From Candidatus Binatia bacterium (GTDB taxonomy: Bacteria; Desulfobacterota; Binatia; DP-6): 64,000 nucleotides of DNA. Position numbers and translations under genes: made by a program. The notes below the pieces were generated by a model. That model was not told the origin of the DNA. It searched no databases and saw only the letters and a list, made by a program, of their open reading frames with translations. How positions within the stretch are numbered: the first letter of the stretch is position 1; every line of letters starts with the position of its first letter. Positions 14,217 through 42,485 of the stretch are shown here, one piece after another. Where the stretch lies: the NCBI GenBank assembly GCA_041496545.1, contig JBGQET010000003.1, positions 21,208 through 85,207 of the forward strand, in the 5' to 3' direction.

Positions 14217-14698
14217 CGGGAGCCCTCCCCGGCCGGCGGGCCGGCCACCGTGAAGTCGAGCACCTGCGGCTCGCGCTCGCTCACGCGCGCGCGACCGACC
14301 GTCTCCCGGCGCCGGCCGTCGACGTCGACGGTGAGCCGGTACGTCACCTCGCCGGCGGCCGCACCGCACGCCTCGAGGAAGTCCACGCCGACACGGTAGC
14401 GCCCACGGGGTGGGTGAGTCCAGCGCGCGCGCTCGACCCGCACCGCGGCCGGCGGGTCGGCGCAGCGTGCGTCGCGCTCCAGCACGCCGCCGCTCGCCGT
14501 CCTCGGGTTGGCGAAGTAGACGGTCTCGAGGGCCGGGTCGGTCACGTACAGGTCGAGGTCGACGGCCGCGGTCCACGCGAGCGTCACGGTCACGCCCGCG
14601 CTGGGCGCGCCGGGAGCGGGGCCCAGCACGCCGGCGCGCGACGCGCACCCGGCGAGGGCGACGAGCGCGAGAACGCGACGCACGACCGTCTGCATCAC
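14213..14698 (-). CDS. hypothetical lipoprotein
   Basis: Signal peptide with lipobox LAGC. Translationally coupled to the cytochrome-propeller gene. Confidence 0.7.
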   Translation of the reverse strand: MMQTVVRRVLALVALAGCASRAGVLGPAPGAPSAGVTVTLAWTAAVDLDLYVTDPALETVYFANPRTASGGVLERDARCADPPAAVRVERARWTHPPRGRYRVGVDFLEACGAAAGEVTYRLTVDVDGRRRETVGRARVSEREPQVLDFTVAGPPAGEGSR

Positions 14699-14735
14699 CT
14701 TGACGCCTTAAGCGACGCTATGGGTATAAGCCGCC

Positions 14736-15749
14736 ATGCCGAAGCTCAAGCTGCCTCGCGTCGCGCGCACGGCGGAGCCGCTGCCACCCGAGCTGCGCCG
14801 CCTGGCCGACGAGCCACCGTCGTTCACCGTGCTGCTCGGCCGGCGCGAGTTCCTGAAAGCGGCGGGCGTGCTCGCGGCGGCGCTGGCCGTGCCGTTCACC
14901 GGCGTGCGGCGCGCCTACGCCAGGGCCCGCGGCGGCTTCTTCACCCGCCCGGAGCGCGCCACGCTCGAAGCGCTCGTCGACCGCGTCATTCCGCCGGATC
15001 GCGACCCGGGGGCGCGCGCGCTGGGCGTCGCGGTCTACATCGAGCGACTCCTGACCGCCTTCGACGGCGCCGGCACGCCGCCGATCTTCGCCGGCGGCCC
15101 GTTCAGCAACCGCAACCCCTTCCCCGACGAGCGCCGCGGACGGCGGTCGCGTCGCCGGCCGCCGAACGCCTTCAAGCAGTTCATCCCGCTGACGCGACTC
15201 CAGACGCTGCGCTGGCGGGCCGAGATCTTCGGCTCGGCCGCGGTCGCCGGCGCCGGCTTCAACGACGCCGCGCTCGGCCCCTGGCTGGGTCTCCGGCAGA
15301 TCTACCGCGACGGCCTCGCCAAGGTCGATCAGGTGGCGGTCGCCATGAAGGGACGTCCGTTCGCGCGGCTCGCGCGCGGCGACCGCGACGCGGTCCTCGG
15401 CGCCCTCGACCGGGGGCTCTTCCCCGCCGACCGCCGCCGCGGGACGACCTTCCTCGACGTCGTGATCCAGCACACCCTCGAGGGCTCTTTCGCGGCGCCG
15501 GAGTACGGCGGCAACCACCGCGGGCGCGGCTGGCGCCTGGTGCGAATCGAGGGCGACAACCAGCCACTCGGCTATTCGATCTTCTCCACCGACAAGAACG
15601 ACTACAACGAGCGGCCGACGAACCCGATGTCGACGCCGAACCCGGACGAGCTGCGCCACGGCCAGCTCCGCCCGCACCCGATCTCGGCCGACGGCCTCTC
15701 CATCGAGGACGCGATCCTCACGCTCACCGGCCCGTTCGAGAACACCTGA
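14736..15749 (+). CDS. gluconate 2-dehydrogenase subunit 3 family protein (TAT-signal small subunit)
   Basis: Twin-arginine motif RREFLKAAGVLAAALA. Family typical of partner subunits of periplasmic GMC flavoproteins. Stop overlaps the ATG of the next gene (TGATG). Confidence 0.85.
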   Translation: MPKLKLPRVARTAEPLPPELRRLADEPPSFTVLLGRREFLKAAGVLAAALAVPFTGVRRAYARARGGFFTRPERATLEALVDRVIPPDRDPGARALGVAVYIERLLTAFDGAGTPPIFAGGPFSNRNPFPDERRGRRSRRRPPNAFKQFIPLTRLQTLRWRAEIFGSAAVAGAGFNDAALGPWLGLRQIYRDGLAKVDQVAVAMKGRPFARLARGDRDAVLGALDRGLFPADRRRGTTFLDVVIQHTLEGSFAAPEYGGNHRGRGWRLVRIEGDNQPLGYSIFSTDKNDYNERPTNPMSTPNPDELRHGQLRPHPISADGLSIEDAILTLTGPFENT

Positions 15750-17590
15750 TGGCCGACGACCTCCTCGGCGACCGCAGCCGCACGAGCTTCGAGTACTGCA
15801 TCATCGGGAGCGGCGCCGGCGGCGGCAGCGCGGCGCACGTGCTCACGGCCGCCGGCCACAGCGTGCTCGTGCTGGAGGCGGGCCCCAACCCGTTTCCCGG
15901 GCTCGACGATCCGGCGCCGCTCCAGCCTCCACTCCACAGCAACGACGAGCTCAAGTACGCCGTACGCGGCTGGATCGCCCAGGACCCGTTCCTCGAGCCG
16001 CGCACGTTCCGCTCCGATCCGACGGCGAACGCGTCGCTGGAGAAGGACGTCAACGTGCTGCCGCAGGCCGTCGGCGGCGCCTTCCAGCACGCCGACTGCA
16101 AGACGCCGCGCTTCAACGCCGTCGACTTCGCCCTCAAGTCGTCGATGGAGGCGCTGCTCGCGCGCCCCGAGAACGCCGGCCTCACCGTGCCCGGGTTCGG
16201 CGCCGACGCGGCGAGCGCCAACTTCGCGGACTGGCCGTTCGGCTACGACGACCTGGAACCGTTCTACGTCGAGGCGGAGCAGGTCTACGGTGTGCAGGGG
16301 CTCGCGGGCGACAACGTCTACGAGTCGCGGCGGAGCAGGCCCTACCCCATGCCGCCCGGCGTGCCGATGTACATCGCGGAGCTGCTGAAGGAAGGCGCCG
16401 TGCGCACGACGCTCCCGGGCGTCGGCGCGCTCCACCCGCACACGTACCCGGCTGCGATCACCTCGCGCTACTACGGCGCGGCCCCGAGCGAGCGTCCGCC
16501 GTGCGTCGACTGCGGGCTGTGCAGCGGCTTCGGCTGCCCGAACAACGCCAAGGGCTCGCCGGCGGTGACGACGCTCCGCCGTGCGCTCCTCACCGGCCGC
16601 TGCCAGCTCCGCTACAACGCCCACGCGACCAAGCTCCTGAACGACGGCCACCACGTGATCGGCGTCCAGTACGTCGACGCGACCGGCGAGGTGCACGTCG
16701 CCGTGGCCGACCGCTACATCCTCGCCGCCAGCCCGATCGAGTCGGCGCGGCTCTGTCTCAACTCACCGCCGCCGGGCGGCGGCGTGCTCGGCAACTCGAG
16801 CGACCACGTCGGCCAGAACCTCATGTTCCACTTCCAGACGAACGTGAACGGCTTCATGGCGCAGCGGGTGCACGGGCAGCGCGGCCGCGCCGTCACCCAC
16901 GGCTTCTCCGACTTCCGCGGCGTCGAGCCGGGCGGCCAGGCGATCCGCGTGCTGACGGACGGTGCCGGCAACAAGGTCGTCGCCATGGGCGGCATCTGCG
17001 AGTTCAGCGCCTCGCAAGGGCTGCCGATCTCCGAGGACGGGAACACCTACGCCCTCAGCCCGCTCGCCGCGATCGTCAAGGCGCGCTTCGGCCAGAAGCT
17101 CAAGAACGCGCTCCGCGACCTGCCGCTCGGCAATCACCTCCTCGGCCTCACCATGCAGGCCGAGGACGCGCCGCAGTCGACGAACCGCGTGGAGCTCGAT
17201 TCCCGCTACATGGACGTCTTCGGTCAACCCGTTCCGCGCATCACGTACGCCAACCACGCCTACGAGAAGAACGCGCGACGCTTCTACATCCCCTACCTGA
17301 AGCAGGTGGTCGCGAACACGGGCGCGACGCACGTCTTCGTCACGCCCGTGAACCCGCTGCTCGTCGGCCCGCCGAGCTCGCGGCACGTCATGGGCACGCT
17401 GCGCATGGGCGACGACGCGATGCGCTCGGTCGTCAACCCCACGGGACGCTTCTGGGACGTCGACAACCTCTACGCCTGCGACGGCAGCGTCTTCCCGACC
17501 TCGTCGGGCCACAACCCGACGCTCACCATCTTCGCCGTCGCGCTCAAGATCGCGCACGGCCTGGCGGGGACGCCCCCGGGGATCGTCTAG
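15749..17590 (+). CDS. GMC family oxidoreductase (FAD flavoprotein subunit)
   Basis: N-terminal FAD motif IIGSGAGGG. GMC C-terminal active-site region (HxxGTxxMG, NPT). 613 aa. The ORF-track frame is real only from 15749. Confidence 0.9.
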   Translation: MADDLLGDRSRTSFEYCIIGSGAGGGSAAHVLTAAGHSVLVLEAGPNPFPGLDDPAPLQPPLHSNDELKYAVRGWIAQDPFLEPRTFRSDPTANASLEKDVNVLPQAVGGAFQHADCKTPRFNAVDFALKSSMEALLARPENAGLTVPGFGADAASANFADWPFGYDDLEPFYVEAEQVYGVQGLAGDNVYESRRSRPYPMPPGVPMYIAELLKEGAVRTTLPGVGALHPHTYPAAITSRYYGAAPSERPPCVDCGLCSGFGCPNNAKGSPAVTTLRRALLTGRCQLRYNAHATKLLNDGHHVIGVQYVDATGEVHVAVADRYILAASPIESARLCLNSPPPGGGVLGNSSDHVGQNLMFHFQTNVNGFMAQRVHGQRGRAVTHGFSDFRGVEPGGQAIRVLTDGAGNKVVAMGGICEFSASQGLPISEDGNTYALSPLAAIVKARFGQKLKNALRDLPLGNHLLGLTMQAEDAPQSTNRVELDSRYMDVFGQPVPRITYANHAYEKNARRFYIPYLKQVVANTGATHVFVTPVNPLLVGPPSSRHVMGTLRMGDDAMRSVVNPTGRFWDVDNLYACDGSVFPTSSGHNPTLTIFAVALKIAHGLAGTPPGIV

Positions 17591-29894: not shown

Positions 29895-32168
29895 TCACGG
29901 TCCCTTGCAGATGTCGCTCGACACCAGGCACGAGGCAGCACCCGGCCACGTACCGCACGTGGTGATCCGGCTGGGAATCGTGCTCTTGAACAGGATGTCG
30001 TAGAGAGGCTGCGCGCCGGTGAAGGCGACGCCGAGCGAGACGACCGTGGTCGTTTGGCCCTCCGAGCAGCAGGGGCCCGTCGCCGGCATGCCGGTCAGGC
30101 TCTGGGGCCCTTGCGGTCCGGAGCCGGCGCGCGAGCAGCCGTCGGCGTTCTGATCGGCGAACTGGGCCGTACCCGTGCCCGTCGTGGGAGTCAGGATGAA
30201 GTCGAATTGTGTGACGACGGTATCGCCCGCGCCCACGTCGAAGTCGGTGGCGCAGTCGGTGGCCAGATCCCCGCTGCCGGTACTGTCCTGCCACGTGGTC
30301 GAGCGGACGGGGATGCCGAGCTGCGTGTTGACGCCGGGTGCGCCGGGCCCGCTTCGCGTGGTGATGATGCGGCCCATCGAGTTCGCGCCGGCCCCGGCCT
30401 GTGACGTGTCGCACGGCCCCTTGTCCGGCAGCGTCACGCACGTCTGCACGCTGACGCAGCACCCCGGACACGTCGCGCCGGGGCACCCGGTGGTCGCGGC
30501 GGTGCTGTCGGTCGTGCAGTACAGACCGGTGCGCGTGCCCGCGTTGCACGTGCGGCAGTCGGGGTTGGCGGTGCAGAAATGGCCGTTCGCGGAGGTGTCG
30601 GCGGAGCACCGCTTGATGCCCGCGCACGGGCATCGGAAGGTCGGATCTCCAGAGCACGAGCCGGCCAGGGTGTCGCAGGGCGCCGTGGTGGGATCGCAGA
30701 GGCCGTCGCGCGTGTCGCCGCTGTGCGTGATGTTCGCGGTCACCGTGGCGCCGGGCGCCGCCGCATCCCACACCGTCCCGCTGCCGAACGTTCCGCCGGA
30801 CTCGCACCCCTGCGGCTCGACCTTGGAACAGAAGTTCAGGGGCGGGATGGTGAAGATGGGCACGAAGAAGCCGGCGAAGGGCACGATGGCGTCGTGCTTG
30901 CAGTCGGCGTCGGGGGGCCCGGCGTCGATCGTGGTCACCACGCCGAGCGGGAAGGTGAACGGCGGCAGCGTGGAGACCCCCAGCGTGCCGTCCGACAAGC
31001 ACGTGCCGCCGCCCGGGCAGTCGCCGTCGTCGAGGCAGGGCGTCCGTCCGAGGCAGGTGTTCCCCGTGCCGCAGATGGAGTCGGTCTGGCACGTCGTCGT
31101 GGCGTCGTTGCTGCAGTGACCCAGGCAGCGGCCAGTGCTCTGGGTGATGATGCGCATCGGACCGCAGCACCCTGGGGGAATGGTGATCGTGGTCGTGCTG
31201 GTCGAGGTGGTCGTGGTGGTGGAGGTGCTGGTGGTCGTCGGGGGCGCGTCCTTGGTCGCGGGCAGGCACAGCTCCTTCACGACCTTCACGTCGAGGTACG
31301 CGTCGCCGAGGTTCGCGTTGCGGGTGCCGGCCTTGCGGCCCGCGAACTTCGGCTGGGGAGGCGTCTTCGCGGGATGGACCAGATAGCAGACCAGGTGCCC
31401 GTAGGGGTCGACCGTCCCCTCCCCTTCCTTGTCGACGGGCGTGCAGAGCTTTGTCGGCTTGACGACGTCGTACGCGAAGCCCGCCGGGCTCGAGAAGTCG
31501 TCCTTCACCGTCACCTGCGTCGGCGCGAAGGCCGGCATCTTGTTGTCCCTGATCTTGTAGCACTTGAAGTTGTTCACACCCGAAGCGTCTCCGGGCGGCG
31601 TCCCGAGCGGAGGCAGCGGGCTCGGCAGGCAGATCTTCGCGGCCGGGTCGCAGACGCGCCCGCTCGGCGGGCAGACGTTGGCGGTGTCCGGCGACTTGCA
31701 CTTGGTGGGAGCCCCGAGGTCCGTCTCGAGCGAGCGCACAAGCAGCGAATCCGGAGCGATCGCGTTCAGCTTCAGCGTGCCGAACTGGTCGAAGGTGAGG
31801 TGCGGCACCGTCTTGTAGCCGGTGTCCTCTTTCTCGGGCGCGGTGTTCTTGAGCTGATAGCCCACCATGTAGACGCTGCTGTGGACGGGCGTGAACACGG
31901 AAGCGCCGTGCGTCTTGGTGGCGGGGTTGCAGACGCTGAGGATCCGGAAGGCGTCGTAGTGCTTGCCCGTCTCGAACTGGTCGCTCAGCAGGATGTTCGA
32001 CTTGACGGGCTTCAGGATGGGCGGCGTGTTGGCCGGGACCTTCGCGACCACCACCTTGTAGCAGAGGTAGTGATCGCCCGGGACGTCGACCGCGCGGGCC
32101 CCCAGGGGACCGCCGAGCAGAAATGCGACCACCGACACCGATCTGATTGCGCCGCCTGCGTGTCTCAT
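29895..32168 (-). CDS. large secreted protein, paralog A: repeated CY/LCxPxxK N-terminal modules + Thr/Ser linker + Cys-rich C-terminal domain
   Basis: AGGAGG RBS. Signal peptide. Four N-terminal modules with xCYKxxx ... LCxPxxK. A TTTSTSTTTTTSTSTTT linker. The roughly 430-aa Cys-rich C-terminal domain is shared with the 32306..35581 gene. No family recognised. Confidence 0.8.
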   Translation of the reverse strand: MRHAGGAIRSVSVVAFLLGGPLGARAVDVPGDHYLCYKVVVAKVPANTPPILKPVKSNILLSDQFETGKHYDAFRILSVCNPATKTHGASVFTPVHSSVYMVGYQLKNTAPEKEDTGYKTVPHLTFDQFGTLKLNAIAPDSLLVRSLETDLGAPTKCKSPDTANVCPPSGRVCDPAAKICLPSPLPPLGTPPGDASGVNNFKCYKIRDNKMPAFAPTQVTVKDDFSSPAGFAYDVVKPTKLCTPVDKEGEGTVDPYGHLVCYLVHPAKTPPQPKFAGRKAGTRNANLGDAYLDVKVVKELCLPATKDAPPTTTSTSTTTTTSTSTTTITIPPGCCGPMRIITQSTGRCLGHCSNDATTTCQTDSICGTGNTCLGRTPCLDDGDCPGGGTCLSDGTLGVSTLPPFTFPLGVVTTIDAGPPDADCKHDAIVPFAGFFVPIFTIPPLNFCSKVEPQGCESGGTFGSGTVWDAAAPGATVTANITHSGDTRDGLCDPTTAPCDTLAGSCSGDPTFRCPCAGIKRCSADTSANGHFCTANPDCRTCNAGTRTGLYCTTDSTAATTGCPGATCPGCCVSVQTCVTLPDKGPCDTSQAGAGANSMGRIITTRSGPGAPGVNTQLGIPVRSTTWQDSTGSGDLATDCATDFDVGAGDTVVTQFDFILTPTTGTGTAQFADQNADGCSRAGSGPQGPQSLTGMPATGPCCSEGQTTTVVSLGVAFTGAQPLYDILFKSTIPSRITTCGTWPGAASCLVSSDICKGP
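31195..31270. repeat. coding low-complexity (ACC/ACG)n tract encoding the Thr/Ser linker of paralog A
   Basis: The plus strand reads ggtcgtggtggtggaggtgctggtggtcgtcgg..., which translates on the minus strand as TTTSTSTTTTTSTSTTT. Confidence 0.8.
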
Positions 32169-32196
32169 GAGGACGAGCCTCCTAGTTAGTTTGGAG
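32169..32196. promoter_or_regulatory. hairpin sequestering the AGGAGG RBS of paralog A
   Basis: On the mRNA (minus) strand: GAGCCTCC-aaactaacta-GGAGGCTC, an 8-bp stem with a 10-nt loop. The 3' arm contains the AGGAGG RBS 8 nt upstream of the ATG at 32168. Confidence 0.5.
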
Positions 32197-32291
32197 GCTC
32201 AGCTAACACGCGTGGGGTGCGACCCACAAGAGCTCTCGCGCTCGCCGGGCCTATGATCGGCCGGAACGCGTCCCCGGTCGCATGCTCGAAT

Positions 32292-32305
32292 GGAACAATT
32301 GTTCC
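32292..32305. promoter_or_regulatory. 14-bp perfect palindrome GGAACAATTGTTCC immediately after the stop of paralog B, upstream of paralog A
   Basis: Perfect dyad symmetry with an AT-rich centre in an otherwise GC-rich intergenic region. Operator-like. Confidence 0.5.
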
Positions 32306-35300
32306 TCACTGCCCCTGGCAGGGGTCGGTCGTCAGAGTACAGGAACCTGGAACGAACGAGCCGCAGGCGGTGATCTTCGTCGGGATGGTGCTGGCGAAGG
32401 TCAGGTCGAAGAGCGGCGGGCCGCCGCTGGGCGCGGTGCCGACGGAGACGACCGTCGTCGTCTGCCCGACGGTGCAACCCGGGCCAGCCGCGGGGGCGCC
32501 GGTCAGCGAGACCGGGCCGTCGGGGCCGGAGCCGGAGCGGAAGCAGCCGTCGCCGTTCTGATCCTTCCACTCCGCGGTGGCGACGGCGGAGCTCGGACGC
32601 AGCACGAAGTCGAACTGGGTGATCGGCAGGTCGCCGCTTCCGCTGTCGAAGCCGGTCTGGCAGGACGAGAGCTGATCGCAGGTCTCGCCCGCCGGGCAGT
32701 TGGTGCTGGCCCCGGAGCACTTGCACGTGCCGGTGCCGATATCGCACGCCGTACCCGGGCACTGGGTGTCCAGGGTGCAGGCGACGCCGCTCCCGTGGGT
32801 GCAGTGGAACGGCGTGGACTCCTGCCAGGTCGTGGAGTGCACGGGGATGTTGACCTGGGTGTGGACGCCGGCCGTGCCGGCCGGGGTGCGGGTGATGATG
32901 GTGCGGGCCTTCGAGTTGTTGCCCGCGCCCGGCTTGGTCAGGTCGCAGGTGCCCTTGGCGCCCAACGTGTCGCAGGTGAGCGCCGCGACGTTGGTACAGC
33001 AGCCGGGGCAGGTGGCGCCGGCGCCGCAGCCGGTGATGCCGTTGGTGGTGTCCGAGGTGCAGAAGAGCCCCGCCCGCGCGCCCGAGGCGCACTTGAAGCA
33101 ACCACCCAGGATCGTGCTGCCGGTGCAGGATTTCCCGACGCTCGAGTGGTCGTTGGAGCAGCGCTTCTGATTCGTGCAGTCGCCGTTTCCGGCGCAAGGC
33201 CAGGACGCGTCGCTGGCGCAGGTTCCGGCGCTGCTGGAGCACTGCGTGGCCGGGTCGCAGGTCCCGTCCGCCGTGTCGGTGCTGAGCTTGATGCTCGCCG
33301 TGACCGCGCTGGGCGGTGCGGTGGAATCCCAGACCGTCCCGTTCCCGTCGGCGCCGCCGGCGGCGCAGCCGCTGTTGACGACCTGGGAACAGTAGTTGAG
33401 GGCCGAGATGAAGAAGATCGGCACGTTGAAGTTGCCCGCCTGGATGATCGCCGGATGGGCACAGTTCGCGTCGGCGGGGCCCGCGTCCACGGTGGTGAGG
33501 ACGCCCAGCGGGAAGGGGAAGGCCGGCAGCGAGTCCACCGTCAAGCTGCCGCCCGAGATGCACGTCTCACCTCCGGGGCATCCCGCGTTGTCGAAGCAGG
33601 TCGTTCCCATCGACGTGCTGCAGTGACCCGTGCTCTGCGTCGTGATGCGGACCGGCGCGCTGCACGCGAGCGTCGTGGTGGTGGTGCTGGTCGTGGTGGT
33701 GGTCGACGCCGTCGTGGTCGTGGTGGGGTGCGTGGTGGTGGTCGTCGGCTGCGTCGTGGTGGTGGTCGACGTCGTCGTGGAGGTGGTGGGCAACACCTTC
33801 TTGTAGGTGGCGATCGCGGCCGACCAGCGGTGCCCCGTGGTGAGCGTCGCCGTCGTGCGGTATTGCCCCATCGCCGAGACGACCTTGAAGCCGGAGAAGA
33901 TGCTGGCCGGGATCTGGCCGCCGCTCGTCGGGTTCCGCGACACGGGCAGCTCGGTGAAGCTCTGTCCCTGGATGAACGTCATCGTGGTCGGCGCCTCGAC
34001 GCCGATCGCGCTGATCAGCAGCTCGTCGTTCATCGTCGTGACCGCGGTGTACCCCGAGTCGGGGAACTTGTCGTTGTCCCAGCCGTCGGAGGTGCGGTCG
34101 AGCATGTTGATGTTCTTGAACTCGTTGACGCTCACCGCCTTGGTGTGGGTGAGCGGGTGGTTCACCGTCACCATGTTCCCCGTCTGCAGCGCCTTCACGT
34201 TGTGCGCGGCGCAGACGATGGTCCGAACGCCGCGGCGGTCGAGGCCGACGTTCGTGTCGACGTCCAGGGTGTAGACGTTCCCCTGCGTGTCGGAGCAGCT
34301 CACCATGCCGTCCATGGGGTCCATGGCGAAGGTGACGATGATGCTGTCCCCCGCCGTGACACCCGGCGCCGGCACGGTGACCAGGGTGGCGGTGCTGTCC
34401 GTCACGTCGTGGGCGACGCCGATGTTGCGCACCAGCATGGGCGGCATCGGCATCATCGTGGTGGTGGTCGTGCTCGTGGTGGTCGCGGTGGTGGTCGCGT
34501 GCGTCGTGGTCGAGGACGTCGTCGCGGTGGTGGTCGCGTGCGAGGTGGACGTCGTCGTCGTGACGCTCGTCGAGGTCGTCGGCGCGTGGGTGGTGGTGGT
34601 CGTCGTCACACACGCCGAGTCGTCGATGCGGCAGCCGAAGCAGCGCCGGCAGTCCGGGCTGTTGGCCGGCGTCTGGATGAGAGCGCCCATGCAGCTCGTG
34701 ATCGCGCCCGTGGCGCTCCCGGCCGGCAGACACTCGCAGGTCTCGCCGCACTCCGACTCGATGACCGCATCGCCGCACTCGCCCTCGCACACCGAGCCGA
34801 GCGGTGCGTCCTTGCCCGCGGGCACGCACAGCTCGATCGCTCCTCGCGCCTTCAGCACCGCGTAGTGGAAGTCGGCGTTGTCGATGGCCACCACGCGGCC
34901 GGCGGACGGCCCTCGGCGCGGGACCCGCTGCGCCTCGTAGCAGAGGAGGTGCTGGGGGTGGTCGGCCGCCGACCCACCCGTGCCGGCCTTGTCGGTCGGC
35001 GCGCAGAGCCTCGTGATGCGCTGCAGGCGGAAGACCGCCGAGCCGAACCGGTCCGTGACCAGCGGCGGCTTCGGGCGGCTGAACCGCGTGCGGCGTTGCT
35101 TGCGGGCGAGATAGCAGGTGAACTCGTCGACGCCGGTGTCGATCGGCGGCTTGGGATCCCCGAGGCTACCCTCGGCGCCCATCGCCGATGGAGCCAGCAA
35201 CCGCTCCGGTCGCAGCACCGTGATCGGATGGCGGCCGAAGAGGTCGAAGGCAACGTGGTTGCTGCGGGCGAAGCGCGCGCCGCTCAACCGGTAGCCGACC

Positions 35301-35581
35301 AGCGACACCTTCGGGTGGCGCGGCTGCGCGCCCTGATCCTTGCGTGCCGGATTGCAGAGCGACACGATCCGCCGCACGCGGTACGTCGCCTTTCCGAACT
35401 TGTCCTCCAGCACGCGACTCGTGGGCGCAAAGCTCGGACCGTCGCCGGTCGCGGCCGCCGTGTAGCACAGATACGGATCGACCGGCGTCTCCACCCGCCC
35501 CTCCGCGGTGAGGGCGTAGGCGGCGTACGCCAGCACGGCCACGCCAACGAGGCGAAGGACTCCTCTTTGATCAGTCGTCAC
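32306..35581 (-). CDS. large secreted protein, paralog B: same N- and C-domains as paralog A with an extra ~230-aa middle domain between two Thr-rich linkers
   Basis: GTG start with AAGGTG RBS. A hydrophobic N-terminus. The C-terminal 430 aa aligns block-by-block with paralog A (RITTQSTG.C, FPFPLGV.TT.DAGP.DA.C.H, CPGCC, TIITR, VHTQVNIPV, QFDFVLRP, GQTTTVVS.G). Confidence 0.8.
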   Translation of the reverse strand: MTTDQRGVLRLVGVAVLAYAAYALTAEGRVETPVDPYLCYTAAATGDGPSFAPTSRVLEDKFGKATYRVRRIVSLCNPARKDQGAQPRHPKVSLVGYRLSGARFARSNHVAFDLFGRHPITVLRPERLLAPSAMGAEGSLGDPKPPIDTGVDEFTCYLARKQRRTRFSRPKPPLVTDRFGSAVFRLQRITRLCAPTDKAGTGGSAADHPQHLLCYEAQRVPRRGPSAGRVVAIDNADFHYAVLKARGAIELCVPAGKDAPLGSVCEGECGDAVIESECGETCECLPAGSATGAITSCMGALIQTPANSPDCRRCFGCRIDDSACVTTTTTTHAPTTSTSVTTTTSTSHATTTATTSSTTTHATTTATTTSTTTTTMMPMPPMLVRNIGVAHDVTDSTATLVTVPAPGVTAGDSIIVTFAMDPMDGMVSCSDTQGNVYTLDVDTNVGLDRRGVRTIVCAAHNVKALQTGNMVTVNHPLTHTKAVSVNEFKNINMLDRTSDGWDNDKFPDSGYTAVTTMNDELLISAIGVEAPTTMTFIQGQSFTELPVSRNPTSGGQIPASIFSGFKVVSAMGQYRTTATLTTGHRWSAAIATYKKVLPTTSTTTSTTTTTQPTTTTTHPTTTTTASTTTTTSTTTTTLACSAPVRITTQSTGHCSTSMGTTCFDNAGCPGGETCISGGSLTVDSLPAFPFPLGVLTTVDAGPADANCAHPAIIQAGNFNVPIFFISALNYCSQVVNSGCAAGGADGNGTVWDSTAPPSAVTASIKLSTDTADGTCDPATQCSSSAGTCASDASWPCAGNGDCTNQKRCSNDHSSVGKSCTGSTILGGCFKCASGARAGLFCTSDTTNGITGCGAGATCPGCCTNVAALTCDTLGAKGTCDLTKPGAGNNSKARTIITRTPAGTAGVHTQVNIPVHSTTWQESTPFHCTHGSGVACTLDTQCPGTACDIGTGTCKCSGASTNCPAGETCDQLSSCQTGFDSGSGDLPITQFDFVLRPSSAVATAEWKDQNGDGCFRSGSGPDGPVSLTGAPAAGPGCTVGQTTTVVSVGTAPSGGPPLFDLTFASTIPTKITACGSFVPGSCTLTTDPCQGQ
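33661..33790. repeat. coding Thr-codon repeat tract (linker 2 of paralog B)
   Basis: gtggtggtgctggtcgtggtggtggtcgacg... encodes PTTSTTTSTTTTTQPTTTTTHPTTTTTASTTTTTSTTTTT. Confidence 0.8.
34441..34620. repeat. coding Thr-codon repeat tract (linker 1 of paralog B)
   Basis: Encodes TTTTTTHAPTTSTSVTTTTSTSHATTTATTSSTTTHATTTATTTSTTTTT. Confidence 0.8.
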
Positions 35582-35975
35582 GGTTGCACCTTCCCGCGTC
35601 GGTGGTTACGCGACCCGCCACGACATCGTCAAGAAATTTCTCCTGTTTGCCTCCTCTCTACGCGTTCAACACAGCGCCCGCCACAGCAGCGCCATACGTA
35701 TGTCTCCATCGACCAGCTCACCACGCAGCGCACCTCACACCACCTCACGCTGCGAAGCATGCAGCGCGTGAGCGCACGCACCTCGTCTCGACGAACGGCG
35801 ATGCGCGCGCAGCGCGCGAGCCAACGTCCCGAAGGCGCGACGCGAGCCGCGAAGAGTAACCGGACGCGGCTTTGCCGCAGCCGGCGCGGGGTCTGGGGGC
35901 GCGCGGCAGAGCCGCGCGGGAGTCAGTCCGCAGGCGCGCGGAGCGCGCCGAGCGCCGGACGGGCCCCCGGATGCG

Positions 35976-38900
35976 TCAAGGAAGGCAGTACAGCTTCAAA
36001 CCGTCCGAATCGATCGTGTTCCGCGTCGTCCGCGCCTTGAGCTTGATCGACTTGTTGGCGGACTTCGTCGGTGACACGAGCGGGACGTGCACGTCGACGC
36101 GCGGGCCGCAGGCGTCGAACAGTGACGTCTGCGCCGCGACGGCCGCCGCGAGCAACCCGGCGCGGTTGACCGCATCCTCCGGCCTCTTGGCACCGTCCTT
36201 GGCGCTCGGCTTCGACACGTCCACCTGCACCGGAGTCCCGAGCGTCAGCCCACCCGGCAGGCAAGCCGGCAGGCTCGGGTCGTGCACGTTGGCGCAGAGC
36301 CAGAGGTGGAAGACGCACTCGGACGCTCCGGCTCCGAAGTCACACGACGGGTCACCGTTCTGGCAGGACTGCTTCACGTCCGGCTTGCCGAACCTGTCGA
36401 GCGACGGATGGTCGAAGGCGAACTCGATCACGCAGTCGCTGAGCGAGCTCCCCTTGCCGCCGATAAACTGGGCGGTGGGCGGCGGCTCGAGGAAGCAGAG
36501 CGGCGAGCAGCCGTCGCCGGCCGTCGTGTTGCCGTCGTCGCACTGCTCGCCTCGGGCCGTGTCGACGATGCCGTCGCCGCAGCGCGCCGGCCGGCAGTCT
36601 GTGCGGCAGCTCGCGTTGGGAGCGTTCGAGTTCGCGGCGCCGAGGTCGCACTGCTCGACGCCGGTCTGCACGAAGCCGTCGCCGCAGCGCGCCGCGATGC
36701 ACCCGACCAGGCAGGCGTCGGTGTTGCTCGCGTTGCCGTCGTCGCACGCCTCGCCCGGCTCGGGGATGCCGTTGCCGCAGCACGGGGCGAACGGCGTGTG
36801 GACGCAGACGTTCGCCGCCTCGTCGCAGGTGTCGGACGTGCAGGGGTCCGTGTCGGCGCAGTTACGCGCCTGACCCGCCGTGCAGACGCCGCCCTGGCAG
36901 GTGTCGTTCACGCTACAGAACTGACCGTCGTCGCACGTCGTGCCGTTCACCTTGTTGGGATGCGTACAGAGGCCGGAGGCGCAGACGTCGTTGCTGCACG
37001 CGTTCCCGTCGTCGGTGCACGCGCCCGTGCGGTTGGTGTACACGCAGCCCTGCGACGGGACGCAGGCGTCGGTGGTGCACTCCTTGCCGTCGTCGCAGAT
37101 CATCGGCGCGCCGGGCTGGCAGCCGCCCGCCCCGTTGCAGTGATCGCCCACCGTGCAGAGGTTGCCGTCGGAGCACGGCGTGGTGGCGGGCGCCGGCGGA
37201 TGCGTGCACCCCGTCGGCTCGACGCAGGAGTCGAGCGTGCACGGATTCGGGTCCGTGCAGTCGAGGGCGACGCCCGGCACGCAGGCGCCGACGGAGCAGC
37301 GCTCGTTGCCGTTGCAGACCAGGCCGTCGGGGCACGGCGTTCCGTCGGGCAGGAGCTGGTGCCGGCAGCCGAGCAGCGGGTCGCAGGAGTCGATGGCGCA
37401 GCCGCCGCTGACGTTGCAGGCCTCGAAGGCGCAGAACGCGGAGCAGCCGTCGCAGCTGAGCGCCGTTCCTCCGCCGTCGTCGCACTGCTCCGGATACTCC
37501 ACGATGCCGTTGCCGCAGGTCGGGCAGGGATCGAGGCAGTCGGTCTGCCCGGGCGCGGTGCAGCGGGGGATCGGGCTGTTGACGGCGAGCGGCTTGATGA
37601 TCGCGCCGGCGACGACGTTCGGGGCGACGCCGGTCGGGAACTGGAACGTGTTGGTGCCGGGGGTCGAGGGCCCCGCTGACGTGGCGGTCGCGTCGAGCAG
37701 ACCGGCGACGGTGATGTGCTCGCGGCCGGTGAGCGTGATCCCGCCGGCGATGGGAGCGCGCGCGAGAAGACTCGCGGTCGACGCGACCGAGACGTTGCAC
37801 CCGAAAACGTCGATCGAGCCCCCGTCTCCACAACTGCCGGTCGCGTCGCAGCCTCCAGCCCCGACGTCGACGGTGTTCATGAGCGACACGGTTCCCGAGC
37901 CGACGAAACCACCCGCGATGAGCACCGTACCGCCGAGGCTGGCGGCGTTGCGCCCGCTCGCGTCGATCTTCCCGGTCACGGTCAGGTCGCGGCCCGCGAG
38001 CAGGTCGATGCTGCCGGCGCTGCTGCCGCCCGAGACGTCCACCGGGCCGGCGATCGTCGCGTCCAGGTTGGCGTCGACCGAGAAGTCGCCGCCCGTGCTG
38101 AAGGTCCCGTTGCCGTGCGTCGACAGCGCGGCGGTCGACTGCACGGTGATCCCACCCACCGAGCTCAACGTGATGCTGCCACCCGTGCCGTCCGGGCTGG
38201 CACCCTCGACGGTGATGTTCCCCGTGACGATCACGTCCCCGAAGGTCGCGTCGGCGTCGAGCGACCCGCCGCAGGCGCCGAAGCTGCCGTCGTTCGCGGT
38301 GCTACCCTTCGCGGAGATGCTGTCGGTGAGCTGGACCGTGGTGCCGGCGCGGACGCTGATCGAGGCCCCGCTCCCGGCATCACCGTTGGCGTTGCCGGAT
38401 ACCTGGGCGAGCACGACGTCGTCGTGCGCGTCCACGCTGACGGTGCCACCGCCCCCGCCGCTCACGTCGAGGTCGCTGCTGATCTCGACGCGGCTGCCGG
38501 TCGAGGTGACGCTGATGCCGCCGCCGGCCGACTGGGAGCCGCCCGCGGCCTGGACGTCGCTCTGGGCCGTGAACGTCACGGCGCCGCCGGCGACGAACGT
38601 GAGCAGCCCGCCGGCGCCGGCGACGCTCAGGTTGCTCGCCAGCACCCTGCCCGACACCGTGATCGACCCACCGGCGTCGATCTCCATCGTGCCGGCGGAC
38701 ATGTCGGCGGAAACGTCGATGCGTCCGGCGGAGGTGCCGCTCCGTTGCACGTCCACGGCGCCCGTCGTCTGGATCACGATCGTGCCGCCCACGTTGAGTG
38801 GGGCCGCGCCGTTGCCCCGGCCGTCGATCCAGGAGCCGGGCGCGAGCGTCAGGCTCGCCGCCTTGAGGGTGACGACGCTCGAGCCGGTCGCCAGGGTGCC

Positions 38901-39133
38901 GTTGCCCGAGATGACGACCGCCCGCGACCCGAAGTCGAGCGTGCAGCCGTTGCCGATGACGAAGGTCTTCGTGATCGTGCACGTCGCCGGCGGCCCGGAC
39001 GGACACCCCGGGTCCTGCGACACGATCTGCGCCGCGTTGCAGGCGGAGAGGGCGCGTGCGTCACGCGCGAGCGCGAGGGTCGCGAGGACGCCTGCCGCGC
39101 ACGCGAGCCCGGACGCGACGCGCCTATTCCGCA
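35976..39133 (-). CDS. very large secreted Cys-rich repeat protein (Gly-rich beta-helix/adhesin-like N-region, tandem CxDxxxC modules, three Myxococcus-type Cys-rich repeats)
   Basis: Putative GTG start 8 nt inside the upstream beta-helix gene, giving signal peptide VRNRRVASGLACAAGVLATLALARDARA. About 10 tandem PCxDGxxCTxDxCxxxGC modules. CGNGIxEPGExCDDGN x3. The C-terminus ends in a ...LC.P..K...LYCLP module resembling those of the paralog N-domains. The start is uncertain. Confidence 0.75.
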
Positions 39134-40077
39134 CAGTCCCGCCCGTTGATCTCGCACTCGGACGGCATGACGACGCCCAGCCGCTCACCGTTGCCGCTCG
39201 CCCGGTTGCCGCCGCCGTCGACGCCCCCGACGTGGATGCCGCGCTGGCCGTTGTTGGTCGCGGTGTTGCCCTGGAGCCGGATGTCGCCGCCCGAGCCCGT
39301 GATCCCGTCACCCGCGTTGCCGCGGGCGACACAGCCGTGCACGTCGTGGTGCATGCCGGCGAGCCGGATGCCGTCGCGCGCCCCGTCCGCGGCCACGCAG
39401 TCGACCAGCGCGAGTCCCATGCCGTTGATGCTGATCGCCGCCATGCCGCTCCCCTCGGCCACGATGCCCGCCCCGGGGGCGCCGAGCCCGGCGTTCCACG
39501 CGGCGACCGAGTATCCGAAGCGGCGGCTGTTCACCGCGCGCGTGGCGTGGATGCCGAACCACGTGCCGCCGAGCGCGAAGCCGTCGCGGCCGGACTCGCG
39601 CGCCTCGACGTCACGGATCTCGTAGCCCGGCGCGTCGACGTTGACGCCGTCGCGCCCGCTGCGGACGACGGCGATCGTCGAGAGCAGCCCGAGCGAGTCG
39701 GCGCCGTGCGCCAGCACGCCGTCGCGGAACCCTTCGATCGAGGCGCGCCCACCGCTGCTCACGATGCGCGTCCCACCCGCGCCGCCGCGGAGCACCCAGA
39801 TGCCGGCGCCGTGGCCGGTGCCGCGGAGCGTTTTCCCGTGCAGGTCGATGGTGAGCGCCGCGCCGTGCGGCTCAGCCTGGACGAGCAGACCGTCGCCGGG
39901 GCAGGCCTCGCGCACCACCGGGTCGTCGCCGAGGACCACGTCGGCCACCACCACGTCGCCGCAGGCGCAGGGGACGCGCTGGCCCTGGACGTCGTCGCCA
40001 CAGAGCTTGGCGCTCGCCGGAGTGCCGGCGATCGCCAGCAGCAACATCGTCGACGCGATGCGCCAATCCATGGGCAC
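39124..40077 (-). CDS. secreted right-handed parallel beta-helix repeat protein
   Basis: AAGGAGG RBS 10 nt before the GTG at 40077 (ATG at 40071 as an alternative). Signal peptide. Gly/Asp-rich PbH1-like repeats (NxGxGIxxxG). Translationally coupled to the 35976..39133 gene. Confidence 0.8.
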   Translation of the reverse strand: MPMDWRIASTMLLLAIAGTPASAKLCGDDVQGQRVPCACGDVVVADVVLGDDPVVREACPGDGLLVQAEPHGAALTIDLHGKTLRGTGHGAGIWVLRGGAGGTRIVSSGGRASIEGFRDGVLAHGADSLGLLSTIAVVRSGRDGVNVDAPGYEIRDVEARESGRDGFALGGTWFGIHATRAVNSRRFGYSVAAWNAGLGAPGAGIVAEGSGMAAISINGMGLALVDCVAADGARDGIRLAGMHHDVHGCVARGNAGDGITGSGGDIRLQGNTATNNGQRGIHVGGVDGGGNRASGNGERLGVVMPSECEINGRDCAE

Positions 40078-40220
40078 GGTCCGGGTTCCTCCTTGGGAAA
40101 GTCAGCGGGACGACCGTGAAGCGCCTTCCGCGAGTCGACGCCTCGTGTGTCTCACGGCCACGGGACGCCCGCGTATAGGATGGGCCGCGGTCATCAGTCA
40201 ATGGAAAATTCGGGCTCGAT

Positions 40221-40988
40221 CTATCTGGGCGGCATGCGAAGTGCGCCATCCAGGCGGATGGTCTCACCATTCAGCATTGGATTTTCGACGATGTGGCGGG
40301 CGAGAGCCGCGAACTCGCTGGGCCGGCCGAGGCGCGAGGGGAAGGGAATCTGCGCCGCGAGCGCCTGGCGCTGGGGCTCGGGGAGCATGGCGAGCATCGG
40401 CGTGTCGAAGGTGCCGGGGGCGATGGTGACGCACCGGATGCCGAGCCCGGCGAGATCGCGCGCGACGGGGAGCGTCATGCTCACCACCCCGCCCTTCGAA
40501 GCCGAGTAGGCCGCCTGCCCGATCTGGCCGTCGAAGGCCGCCGCCGACGCGGTGTTAATGATGACGCCGCGCTCGCCCTCGGCGTCGGGCGCGTTCTTCG
40601 CCATCTGCGCCGCCGCCAGGCGGAGCACGTTGAAGGTGCCGATCAGGTTGATCTCGATCACCATCCGGAACATCTCGAGCGGCATCGGCCCGCTCTTGGT
40701 GACCACCCGCATGGCCGCGCCGACGCCGGCGCAGTTGACGGCGACGTGCACGGTCCCGAAGCGCTCGACGGCGCGCGCGACCGCGGCCGCCACCTCGGTG
40801 TCGCTGGTGACGTCGGCGGGTGCGAAGAGCGCGCGCTCGCCGAGGCTGGCGGCGACTTGCTCGCCGGGCGAGCCGGGACGGTCGAGGATCACCACCCGTC
40901 CGCCGCCCTCGGCGAAGGCGCGGACGGTGGCCTCCCCGAGCCCGGAGGCGCCACCCGTGACGAGCGCGACGGTGTCGGCGATGCGCAT
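40221..40988 (-). CDS. SDR family oxidoreductase (3-hydroxyacyl-CoA dehydrogenase type-2-like)
   Basis: [31 protein letters not shown] motifs. Real from the ATG at 40988. The upstream part of the ORF-track frame is an artefact. Confidence 0.9.
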
Positions 40989-41064
40989 GCGGCCTCCATA
41001 GCGGCCTCGCCGCCGCCGTGCCAGAGGCTTGCGTCGCCCCGCCCGCGCGCCGCAGAGTGGGGCC

Positions 41065-42108
41065 ATGCGCCTCGACGTCCGCGGCCACCCGCTGCACACG
41101 CGGTCCCTCTCGGTGGTGCTCACGCAGCGGGCGGACCGACGGCTCGACGCGCAAGGCACGCTGCTCGACCTGCGCAAGCGCGGCTTCGTCCCCGTGGCCG
41201 GCGATCTGCAGGGCTCGGGCATCGTCCACCTCATGCGGCTCGACGCCATCGTCGACCCGGCACGCGCGACGCTCGACTCGATCGTCGCCGCGCAGCCCGC
41301 CGTCGCCTTCGAGCCGGCCGCCATCACGGAGGGCGAGAGCTGCCGCGACCCGATCCACGCCGTCGAAGCGCTCGCCGGCGCACCCCTCGACGCCGACTTC
41401 GCGCGTCGGACGGGCGCCGCCCTGGGCGGGCCGCGCGGCTGCTCCCACATCTTGACGCTGGCGCACCTCCTCGGCTCCACCGTGGCGTGGGCGCTCGCCC
41501 GCGAGCGCGCCCTCCACGCGGACGGCGCATCCTGGGCGGCCGGCCAGCGCGTGTTCCGACGCGACGTGGTCGTCGACGGCGTCGAGCCGGAGGACGGCGG
41601 GGTCGGCATGGCCGTGCAGCTCACGGACCTGCACCTCGAGCCCGCGGGGCCGCACGCGAAGCCGATGGAGCGCTTCGCCGAGGAGCTGGAGGTGCGCGCG
41701 CTCGCCCACGTCGATCTCTCGACCTTCCGCGTCGCCGCGCTCGAGACGGCGGAGCGGCGGCGCGGCGCGGCCGACCTCGCGCACGCCACCTGGCGGAGTC
41801 GAGCGGCCGCCACGGACCCGCTTGTCGGCCTCGGGCTCGGCGCCGGCGTCACCGCCGCGCTGCTGGCGCGCCTCGGCGAGGACCCCGACGACCGCCCGCT
41901 CCTCGACGCGCTCCTCCAGCTCGCGCCCACCCTCGTGCAGTGCGCCGCCGCCCTCTCCGACACCTGGCCTGCCCTCGCGCAGTCGAACCCGTCGGTCATC
42001 GGCCTCGGCGGCCTGCCGGACTCCTGCTACATGTGGCGACGCGAGGGCCCGCTCCAGCGCCTCCGCGACCGCGAGGGCGGCTCGCTCTCCGCGCGCCCGA
42101 AGCTCTAG
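41065..42108 (+). CDS. hypothetical protein, possibly DUF2889 family
   Basis: The [12 protein letters not shown] region is reminiscent of DUF2889. Divergent from the SDR at 40988. Weak assignment. Confidence 0.55.
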
Positions 42109-42149
42109 CCGCCAGATTCCACCTTGCCCGTGCGCTCACATCCCGTATT

Positions 42150-42485
42150 ATGGTCGGCGAAGCGATGCCGAAGCGGGAGACGCAGGACAGCCCGGGCGTA
42201 GCCACCCGGACGCGCACCAAGGAGAAGCTCCAGTGCCCGCCCCTCTACAAGGTGCTGCTCCACAACGACGACTACACCACCATGGAGTTCGTCGTCTGGC
42301 TCCTCCAGAGCGTGTTTCACCACGACGAGGCCAGCGCCACCGAGGTCATGCTGCACGTCCATCGCAACGGCATCGGCGTCGCGGGCGTCTATCCCTACGA
42401 GATCGCGGAGACGCGCGTGGCGCGGGTCGAGACGCTGGCGCGGGAGCACGAGTATCCGCTCCGCTGCACGCTGGAGACCGAGTAG
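42150..42485 (+). CDS. clpS: ATP-dependent Clp protease adaptor protein ClpS
   Basis: Conserved core PPLYKVLLHNDDYTTMEFVV..L...F. Immediately precedes clpA with a 1-nt spacer. Confidence 0.9.
   Translation: MVGEAMPKRETQDSPGVATRTRTKEKLQCPPLYKVLLHNDDYTTMEFVVWLLQSVFHHDEASATEVMLHVHRNGIGVAGVYPYEIAETRVARVETLAREHEYPLRCTLETE

Follow-up and report, generated by a model that had tools for sequence, protein, structure and literature searches.

A candidate two-gene operon of Candidatus Binatia encodes a beta-helix protein and a putatively adhesin-like, cysteine-rich partner

Genes and protein architecture at the bh-big locus

We analyzed a 64,000-nucleotide (nt) stretch of contig JBGQET010000003.1 from the Candidatus Binatia bacterium assembly GCA_041496545.1, referred to herein as the window, to whose positions all coordinates refer unless another locus is named. 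Four long open reading frames (ORFs), bh, big, par2, and par1, occupy the minus strand from 29.9 to 40.1 kb, in agreement with an initial annotation that a model had made from the DNA letters. Our subject is the first two. The bh gene (39124..40077, minus strand) encodes a protein of 317 amino acids (aa), predicted to be exported and to form a right-handed parallel beta-helix of the pectate-lyase/CASH type, and big (35976..39134, minus strand) encodes a modular protein of 1052 aa, counted from a GTG start and likewise predicted to be exported, for which 78 homologues were found. Their neighbors par2 (32306..35581, minus strand, 1091 aa) and par1 (29895..32168, minus strand, 757 aa) stand outside this conserved pair. 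All four proteins are rich in Cys (8 in bh, 70 in big, 56 in par2, and 46 in par1) and carry signal-peptide-like N-termini, which, like the putative ribosome-binding site and the gene overlap described below, were read from the sequence itself.

The two genes of the pair overlap by 11 nt (39124..39134, minus strand, GTGCGGAATAG), since the big GTG lies at 39134..39132 and the bh TAG stop at 39126..39124; the minus-strand junction reads ...GGGCGGGACT GTG CGG AAT AGG.... The initial annotation had placed the bh stop 8 nt inside the big start codon, and the TAG does begin 8 nt after the G of the GTG. Its start for big at 39133 and its length of 1050 aa were off by one nucleotide and two residues, respectively. 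The same DNA is present in the metagenome-assembled genome (MAG) GCA_041485145.1 (contig JBGPJA010000008.1) and in the JGI metagenome 3300052992, and independent NCBI and JGI gene calls give identical 317-aa and 1052-aa products with the identical overlap. A Shine-Dalgarno-like AAGGAGGAA (40086..40094, minus strand) sits 8 nt 5′ of the bh GTG start, which is followed by an in-frame ATG at 40071 and preceded by an intergenic stretch of 143 nt. At the other end, a gap of 394 nt (35582..35975, minus strand) separates big from par2 and is probably where the bh-big transcription unit ends; the gap between par2 and par1 is 137 nt. A scan for consensus promoters and terminators from 29.5 to 40.5 kb returned none on the minus strand, and RNA folding 3′ of the big stop was no better than that of shuffled sequences (z -1.19).

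The N-terminus of bh has a basic n-region, a hydrophobic core, and an AxA motif, with cleavage predicted between ASA and KLCGDD. When searched with family models, bh scored 20.7 bits against TIGR03804, above the cut-off of 19.45, and 23.8 bits against PF13229, just under the cut-off of 25.9. We collected bh homologues from contigs around relatives of big and by scanning species-representative genomes, which yielded a family of 18 members. PF13229 matched 17 of the 18 (best E 4.4e-17) and the NosD model matched 13 (best E 4.1e-7); the window bh itself has a weak, repeat-level similarity to NosD (E 0.015). Since the family profile finds three solved structures in the PDB, those of a K1 capsule depolymerase (E 6.4e-6), of the mannuronan C5-epimerase AlgE4 (E 7.3e-6), and of a pectate lyase (E 0.011), bh is predicted to be a right-handed beta-helix of the pectate-lyase fold. 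The initial annotation had called it a secreted parallel beta-helix protein, and these matches together with the signal peptide bear that out. Family alignments show that Cys 26, 37, 39, and 59 are invariant, and the mature N-terminus KLCGDDVxGQDVPCxCGD is nearly invariant and specific to the family. We also considered bh as a paralogue of the helix in big and rejected this, as hhalign gave a probability of 2.7%.

The big protein begins with a signal peptide (aa 1-28, 39051..39134, minus strand; MRNRRVASGLACAAGVLATLALARDARA followed by LS) that likewise shows a basic n-region and a hydrophobic core and has its AxA site between ARA and LSAC. The AF2 model of this segment is of low confidence, with a helix at residues 8-22, and the N-termini of big homologues are similar to that of the window copy. 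The following part (aa 29-535, 37530..39050, minus strand) was modeled by AF2 as one confident right-handed beta-helix of ∼15 coils of ∼29 residues. With Gly, Ser, Thr, Val, and Ala making up 62% of its residues, this region has the Gly/Ser/Thr/Val-rich character that the initial annotation had noted, and the adhesin-like repeats that it had read there resolve into this single helix. Its shape is closest to those of the TpsA adhesins HMW1 and EtpA. No Pfam family, PF05860 included, was found in the helix of any of 54 family members, at thresholds for PF05860 of E ≤ 0.1 for the window big and E ≤ 0.001 for the 54.

Downstream of the helix lies a Cys-rich stretch composed of three blocks on the minus strand, namely a first myxo-type Cys-rich acidic repeat (aa 537-572, 37419..37526; CGNGIVEYPEQCDDG...), eight tandem, CTDC-like four-Cys modules of ∼26 aa each (aa 573-784, 36783..37418), and three more myxo-type Cys-rich acidic repeats (aa 785-884, 36483..36782). 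A regular expression of the form CG[ND]G...C[DE]xG located four myxo-type repeats, at aa 540, 786, 817, and 852; the last three were also hit by family models, TIGR02232 scoring 68 bits over three stretches (cut-off 20.8) and PF13948 (DUF4215) scoring 25.4 bits, below its cut-off of 27. The Dictyostelium CTDC model PF00526 reached 25 bits over three stretches of the window big (cut-off 27) and matched 19 of 54 members of the big family (best E 1.4e-14). The three terminal myxo-type repeats had been described before, and the one directly after the helix is an addition to them; the four-Cys modules, previously put at about 10, number eight. The three-part architecture given to big thus broadly holds, with a C-terminal domain of ∼170 aa as a fourth part. 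Across the family, the helix is constant and the region behind it is variable, containing DUF4215, CTDC, EF-hand, or dockerin elements. Published work mentions myxo- and CTDC-type repeats as parts of proteins that are adhesive or extracellular and gives their function as unknown (bioRxiv 10.1101/2023.03.06.531300), and our literature search on DUF4215 and TIGR02232 returned passing mentions only.

The fourth part of big (aa 885-1052, 35979..36482, minus strand) ends in DSDGLKLYCLP and is modeled by AF2 (pLDDT 84.5) as an Ig-like beta-sandwich with a helical insert, predicted to be disulfide-bonded. It is kept at the extreme C-terminus of P0001-P0006, P0029, P0037, P0038, and P0041, some of which contain a partial internal copy as well. 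An exhaustive profile search found the domain in at least 1251 representative clusters, defined at 50% identity, at E ≤ 1e-3 and in 767 at E ≤ 1e-10. Of the 145 best matches, 125 continue for no more than 5 aa beyond the domain and 134 for no more than 10 aa, the typical ending being DxDxLKLxCxP. Myxo-type repeats accompany it in 90 of the best 150 proteins and a big-type helix in 26, and other co-domains include propellers (DUF5122, WD40, NHL, FG-GAP, and BNR), disintegrin, dockerin, and GDSL lipase. Neither Pfam, even at E ≤ 10, nor NCBIfam has a match to this domain, and Foldseek gave no significant match in the PDB. A word-indexed search with the 172-aa domain returned nothing, not even the query itself, which is a sensitivity artefact when set against the exhaustive profile search; a full-length big search did recover the family. 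Null results of word-indexed searches on short domains are hence not to be trusted. By profile and position, the last 170 aa of big are a separate, widespread, and un-annotated terminal domain family.

Conservation of the pair and the adjoining DUF7450 proteins

If bh and big are true partners, synteny in relatives can separate them from bystanders. We found bh followed by a big-family gene in 12 independent loci, mostly of Candidatus Binatia MAGs, with bh identities of 37-55% (L005, L006, L007, which shares a contig with L012, L010, L011, L013, L014, L015, L016, L018, L019, and L024). The two genes overlap or lie less than 50 nt apart in all of them, the extremes being an overlap of 13 nt and a gap of 46 nt. 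The 11-nt geometry of the window recurs in three loci; start codons in the other loci are inferred. Surveyed from the bh side, 15 loci in species-representative genomes, again mostly Candidatus Binatia MAGs, comprise 10 with a big-family gene directly downstream, two whose contigs end too early, and three with a solo bh. Seven big homologues have a readable context when surveyed from the other side, and tblastn placed a bh directly upstream of P0002, P0008, and P0033 (48-55% identity); P0003 has a 321-aa gene 18 nt upstream that is probably a bh. The proposal of a dedicated beta-helix partner for big, already made in the initial annotation, is supported by this gene order. We found nothing in the literature on the bh-big pair.

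Two further observations concern these loci. In L006, a second and shorter pair of big-helix-like ORFs (14434..15893) lies ∼2-3 kb downstream of bh-big. In the MAG MFD02416.bin.1.411, the loci L014 (10017..11010) and L015 (9981..10975), on different contigs, share ∼1 kb at 97-100% DNA identity with sharp edges. This stretch comprises bh and the first ∼100 nt of big; identity falls to 55-63% in the rest of the big bodies and to 33-37% in the flanks upstream. The pattern indicates either gene conversion or that the bh unit was recently duplicated next to long-diverged partners. A Mantel test between the bh and big-helix identity matrices gave r 0.69 (p 0.001), a result that we do not use as evidence of co-evolution because it is driven by the outlier L024 and by the near-identical bh genes of L014 and L015.

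The same survey gives a different picture for par1 and par2. No homologue of either, by N- or C-domain, lies within 8-10 kb of any of ∼20 bh/big loci, and the par1 orthologue P0080 (55% identical) and its relative P0085 are surrounded by unrelated genes. The initial annotation had joined all four genes into one secreted adhesin or polymorphic-toxin-like system held together by a shared LCxPxxK...LYC module. Its four-gene island does not persist in relatives: the neighborhood is split there, with unrelated neighbors, which is the outcome that the initial annotation had itself named as refuting it, and the window has the 394-nt gap between big and par2. Nor did Pfam or NCBIfam reveal a toxin or immunity domain.

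To define the module in question, we compared par1 and par2 with family models. PF24247 (DUF7450) matched par1 at 46.2 bits, above its cut-off of 27, and par2 at 15.6 bits, below it; four modules of par2 match the hidden Markov model (HMM) of the family module at E 1e-9 to 1e-17. These modules have ∼55 aa each and the form hxCY...LCxPxxK. Behind its four modules, par1 continues with a Thr-rich linker and closes with a Cys-rich domain; par2 likewise has four N-terminal DUF7450-type modules and a Cys-rich C-terminal end, with Thr-rich linkers and an additional middle domain in between. The two proteins are, judged from their sequences, true paralogs of each other, the C-domains being 47% identical across 476 aa and the N-domains 30% identical across 286 aa. 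Their Cys-rich C-domains of ∼420-450 aa (32306..33721 in par2 and 29895..31170 in par1) have few homologues (P0080-P0082), and that of par2 has no Pfam match even at E ≤ 10. The extra domain of par2 (∼225 aa, aa 375-600, 33782..34459) stands between Thr/Ser-rich linkers, is absent from par1, and likewise has no Pfam match at E ≤ 10. The long Thr-rich linkers, encoded by ACC and ACG, read as typical extracellular spacers and could possibly be O-glycosylated. Among proteins P0079-P0106, the four-module unit occupies the N-terminus of par1, par2, and their close relatives and the extreme C-terminus of many others, where its passengers include tyrosinase, TSP type 3, CARDB, disintegrin, Exo_endo_phos, and a DUF5122 propeller. 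The unit behaves as a mobile terminal module. A literature search on DUF7450 found no paper.

The C-terminus of big had been thought to resemble these modules, and every comparison argues against it. With every filter disabled and E allowed up to 1000, an HMM built from the eight modules of the window did not report big, and a larger one, built on 80 modules of 28 proteins and used with default filters, matched only par1 and par2 in the window. In hhalign, the profile of the C-terminal domain aligned with the module and four-module profiles at probabilities of 0.07-0.5%. Smith-Waterman alignments of the last 60 aa of big with each module and junction, the comparison by which the resemblance was to be judged, gave z from -1.2 to +1.4 against shuffles, with nothing significant. 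None of the best 150 proteins with the C-terminal domain contains a DUF7450 module. We rejected the big C-terminus as a DUF7450 module on these grounds and on the negative Pfam result; all that the two really share is a strand that ends in Cys-x-Pro, a motif at chance level. A short Cys-containing motif common to neighboring Cys-rich proteins is no evidence of a shared module. A shared targeting role might survive as an analogy between two mobile terminal units, not as homology.

The base composition of this part of the window was also recorded. The window has 69-77% G+C, falling to 69% from 30001 to 36000; GC skew is positive (+0.11) from 30001 to 34000, and AT skew is -0.06 to -0.13 over par1 and par2. 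Long plus-strand ORFs at 32282..36040, 37153..40119, and 40293..42485 would encode Arg/Ala/Gly-rich products of 730-1252 aa antisense to genes. We rejected them as genes and treated them as antisense artefacts because the DNA there is 70-74% G+C.

Proposed function and alternative readings

We propose, with a probability of roughly 0.55, that the real unit is a two-gene bh-big operon and not a four-gene island, that it encodes an adhesin-like surface fiber (big) with an accessory partner of the pectate-lyase fold (bh), and that par1 and par2 are independent secreted proteins that adjoin it by chance. The function of both proteins is inferred. Given their signal peptides, bh and big would be exported via Sec, and with 8 and 70 Cys they would probably fold under oxidizing conditions. 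The overlap would couple their synthesis by termination-reinitiation, so that bh is made just before big and in fixed proportion to it. In the fiber, the ∼500-aa beta-helix would be the functional head, and the 1 + 3 myxo-type repeats and eight four-Cys modules would form a rigid, disulfide-knotted stalk. The terminal sandwich would most likely be a generic module for attachment or retention rather than a functional head, because it commonly caps the C-terminus in more than 1000 other secreted families (beta-propellers, disintegrin, dockerin, and lipase among them). As only the head, and not the variable C-terminal part, is conserved alongside bh, the helix head would most likely be what bh acts with, bh being either an accessory subunit bound to it or a partner that binds or processes glycans.

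Several points weigh against this proposal. The big-family genes P0029, P0011, and P0034 (loci L008, L009, and L027) have no bh upstream. The solo bh genes are followed by pepA (leucyl aminopeptidase) at L020 (2702..5666), L023 (9749..12551), and L021 (3102..5824), and the MAG JAJCZJ01 holds both a solo bh (L021) and a bh-less big-family gene (L027), on different contigs. In bh, we could assign no residues to catalysis or ligand binding, for neither protein is there an evident way across the outer membrane, and an anchoring role of the terminal domain is argued from its position and its promiscuous partners only.

Four alternatives have to be weighed beside the two-gene adhesin operon, and a fifth, the four-gene system, can be set aside quickly. 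In the first, bh would be an extracellular polysaccharide-active enzyme (a lyase, depolymerase, or epimerase) and big its substrate-binding or anchoring scaffold; the two would serve not in adhesion as such but in remodeling or degrading a glycan, be it an exopolysaccharide or one from plants or algae. The profile matches of bh to K1 capsule depolymerase, AlgE4, and pectate lyase speak for such an enzyme, as do the PF13229 and NosD-type repeats of its family, but these matches span generic beta-helix repeats only. The catalytic motif of AlgE4 is YG(F/I)DPH(D/E). In a profile alignment of low confidence, the YGFDPHE segment of AlgE4 (2pyg) faces non-conserved bh residues, so no enzyme activity can be assigned to bh. 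In addition, no carbohydrate-utilization genes are conserved around the pair, and 317 aa is small for an enzyme of this kind. We consider this reading unlikely.

A second and distinctly speculative reading, to which we give a small chance, supposes that Binatia and related uncultured diderms have an undescribed pathway for surface display or export, with the 170-aa terminal beta-sandwich serving it for recognition or attachment. Such a pathway, argued by analogy to the T9SS CTD or PEP-CTERM systems, may load varied passengers, namely beta-helices, beta-propellers, disintegrin, and lipase; bh would be a helper for beta-helix cargo, and the DUF7450 four-module unit would independently play the same role as the sandwich.

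Somewhat less probable still is that big belongs, as a divergent member, to the two-partner-secretion (type Vb) exoproteins, with its N-terminal helix as a TPS-like secretion domain, a TpsB encoded elsewhere as its exporter, and bh as an accessory comparable to HMW1C or EtpC. The resemblance of the big helix to TpsA is strong, yet it is a match of fold only, and PF05860 (Haemagg_act) is absent from big and from the 54 family members. The NPNL and NPNGI motifs were not seen in big by eye, without a pattern search, and gene lists of eight contig neighborhoods contain no Omp85/TpsB-like gene. TpsA proteins cross the periplasm unfolded. Seventy Cys in knotted repeats argue against such a crossing, and bh is no glycosyltransferase.

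The near-identical stretch of L014 and L015 beside divergent big bodies, along with the high variability of C-terminal halves in the big family, could also point to a diversifying effector or antigenic-variation cassette, in which a constant 5′ unit (bh and the big signal peptide) is recombined onto divergent big bodies. We regard this as very improbable: the pattern occurs in one genome only, and one event of gene conversion would explain it equally well; structural repeats make up the variable parts; and there was no sign of a recombinase, a repeat, or a silent-cassette array, nor of toxin or immunity domains. Finally, that all four genes form one adhesin or polymorphic-toxin-like system is hardly credible and, by sequence and synteny, refuted, since the common strand, the Cys-rich proteins with signal-peptide-like N-termini, the disulfide-bonded terminal domains of big and the DUF7450 proteins, and their partly overlapping passengers (DUF5122 propeller and disintegrin) are outweighed by the negative module comparisons, the gene orders of relatives, the gap behind big, and the lack of toxin or immunity domains in our searches. 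Overall, what the initial annotation observed is partly confirmed, and its interpretation is supported in part.

Our preferred reading, the bh-big operon, would change how such loci are annotated. Proteins now labeled hypothetical or cysteine-rich repeat proteins gain a new family of beta-helix heads with a conserved partner gene, and they expose a widespread C-terminal domain that has no family model. As the Binatia are uncultured, the pair also offers a concrete handle on their surface biology.

Comparison with known systems

Among proteins of known type, bh is closest to the pectate-lyase-fold, CASH, and NosD proteins (PF13229 and PF05048), as its family matches both the models and the PDB structures. 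It differs from them in its own N-terminal signature, in not conserving the AlgE4 motif, and in having no nosZ, nosF, or nosY nearby. NosD is a periplasmic beta-helix encoded with nosF, nosY, nosZ, or nosL, and the gene lists around the bh-big pair contain no nos genes.

The big protein resembles TpsA exoproteins such as HMW1, EtpA, FHA, and HxuA in its helix, but the TPS-domain signature is missing (PF05860 in 0 of 54), Cys residues are extremely abundant, and an Ig-like domain forms the end of the protein. Its partner bh is a soluble beta-helix of 317 aa, not an Omp85/TpsB barrel. A classical autotransporter (type Va) requires a C-terminal 12-stranded beta-barrel, whereas big ends in a beta-sandwich with two helices instead. 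Polymorphic toxins, with which the initial annotation had compared the locus, are not a match: no toxin family occurs in the four proteins, and the genes downstream of big encode DUF7450 proteins. Polymorphic toxin or variable surface-protein loci would also be the comparison for a diversifying cassette. Of the proteins in the window, par1 and par2 are members of DUF7450 (PF24247) and the C-terminal domain of big is not.

Like the T9SS CTD, PEP-CTERM, and MYXO-CTERM, the C-terminal domain of big ends many unrelated secreted proteins, and with the T9SS CTD it shares an Ig-like beta-sandwich. It is, however, about twice the size of the T9SS CTD and predicted to be disulfide-bonded, and unlike PEP-CTERM and MYXO-CTERM it has no transmembrane helix, hydrophobic tail, or basic tail; searches of Pfam and NCBIfam matched it to no known family of C-terminal sorting signals. 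Its four myxo-type repeats relate big to the Myxococcus TIGR02232/DUF4215 proteins, and its eight CTDC-like modules may relate it to the Dictyostelium CTDC proteins, with the difference that in big these repeats are only a linker or stalk between two domains that lack family models. Taken together, these likenesses and differences place bh and big as an undescribed variant of the secreted beta-helix, Cys-repeat surface proteins, from an uncultured lineage.

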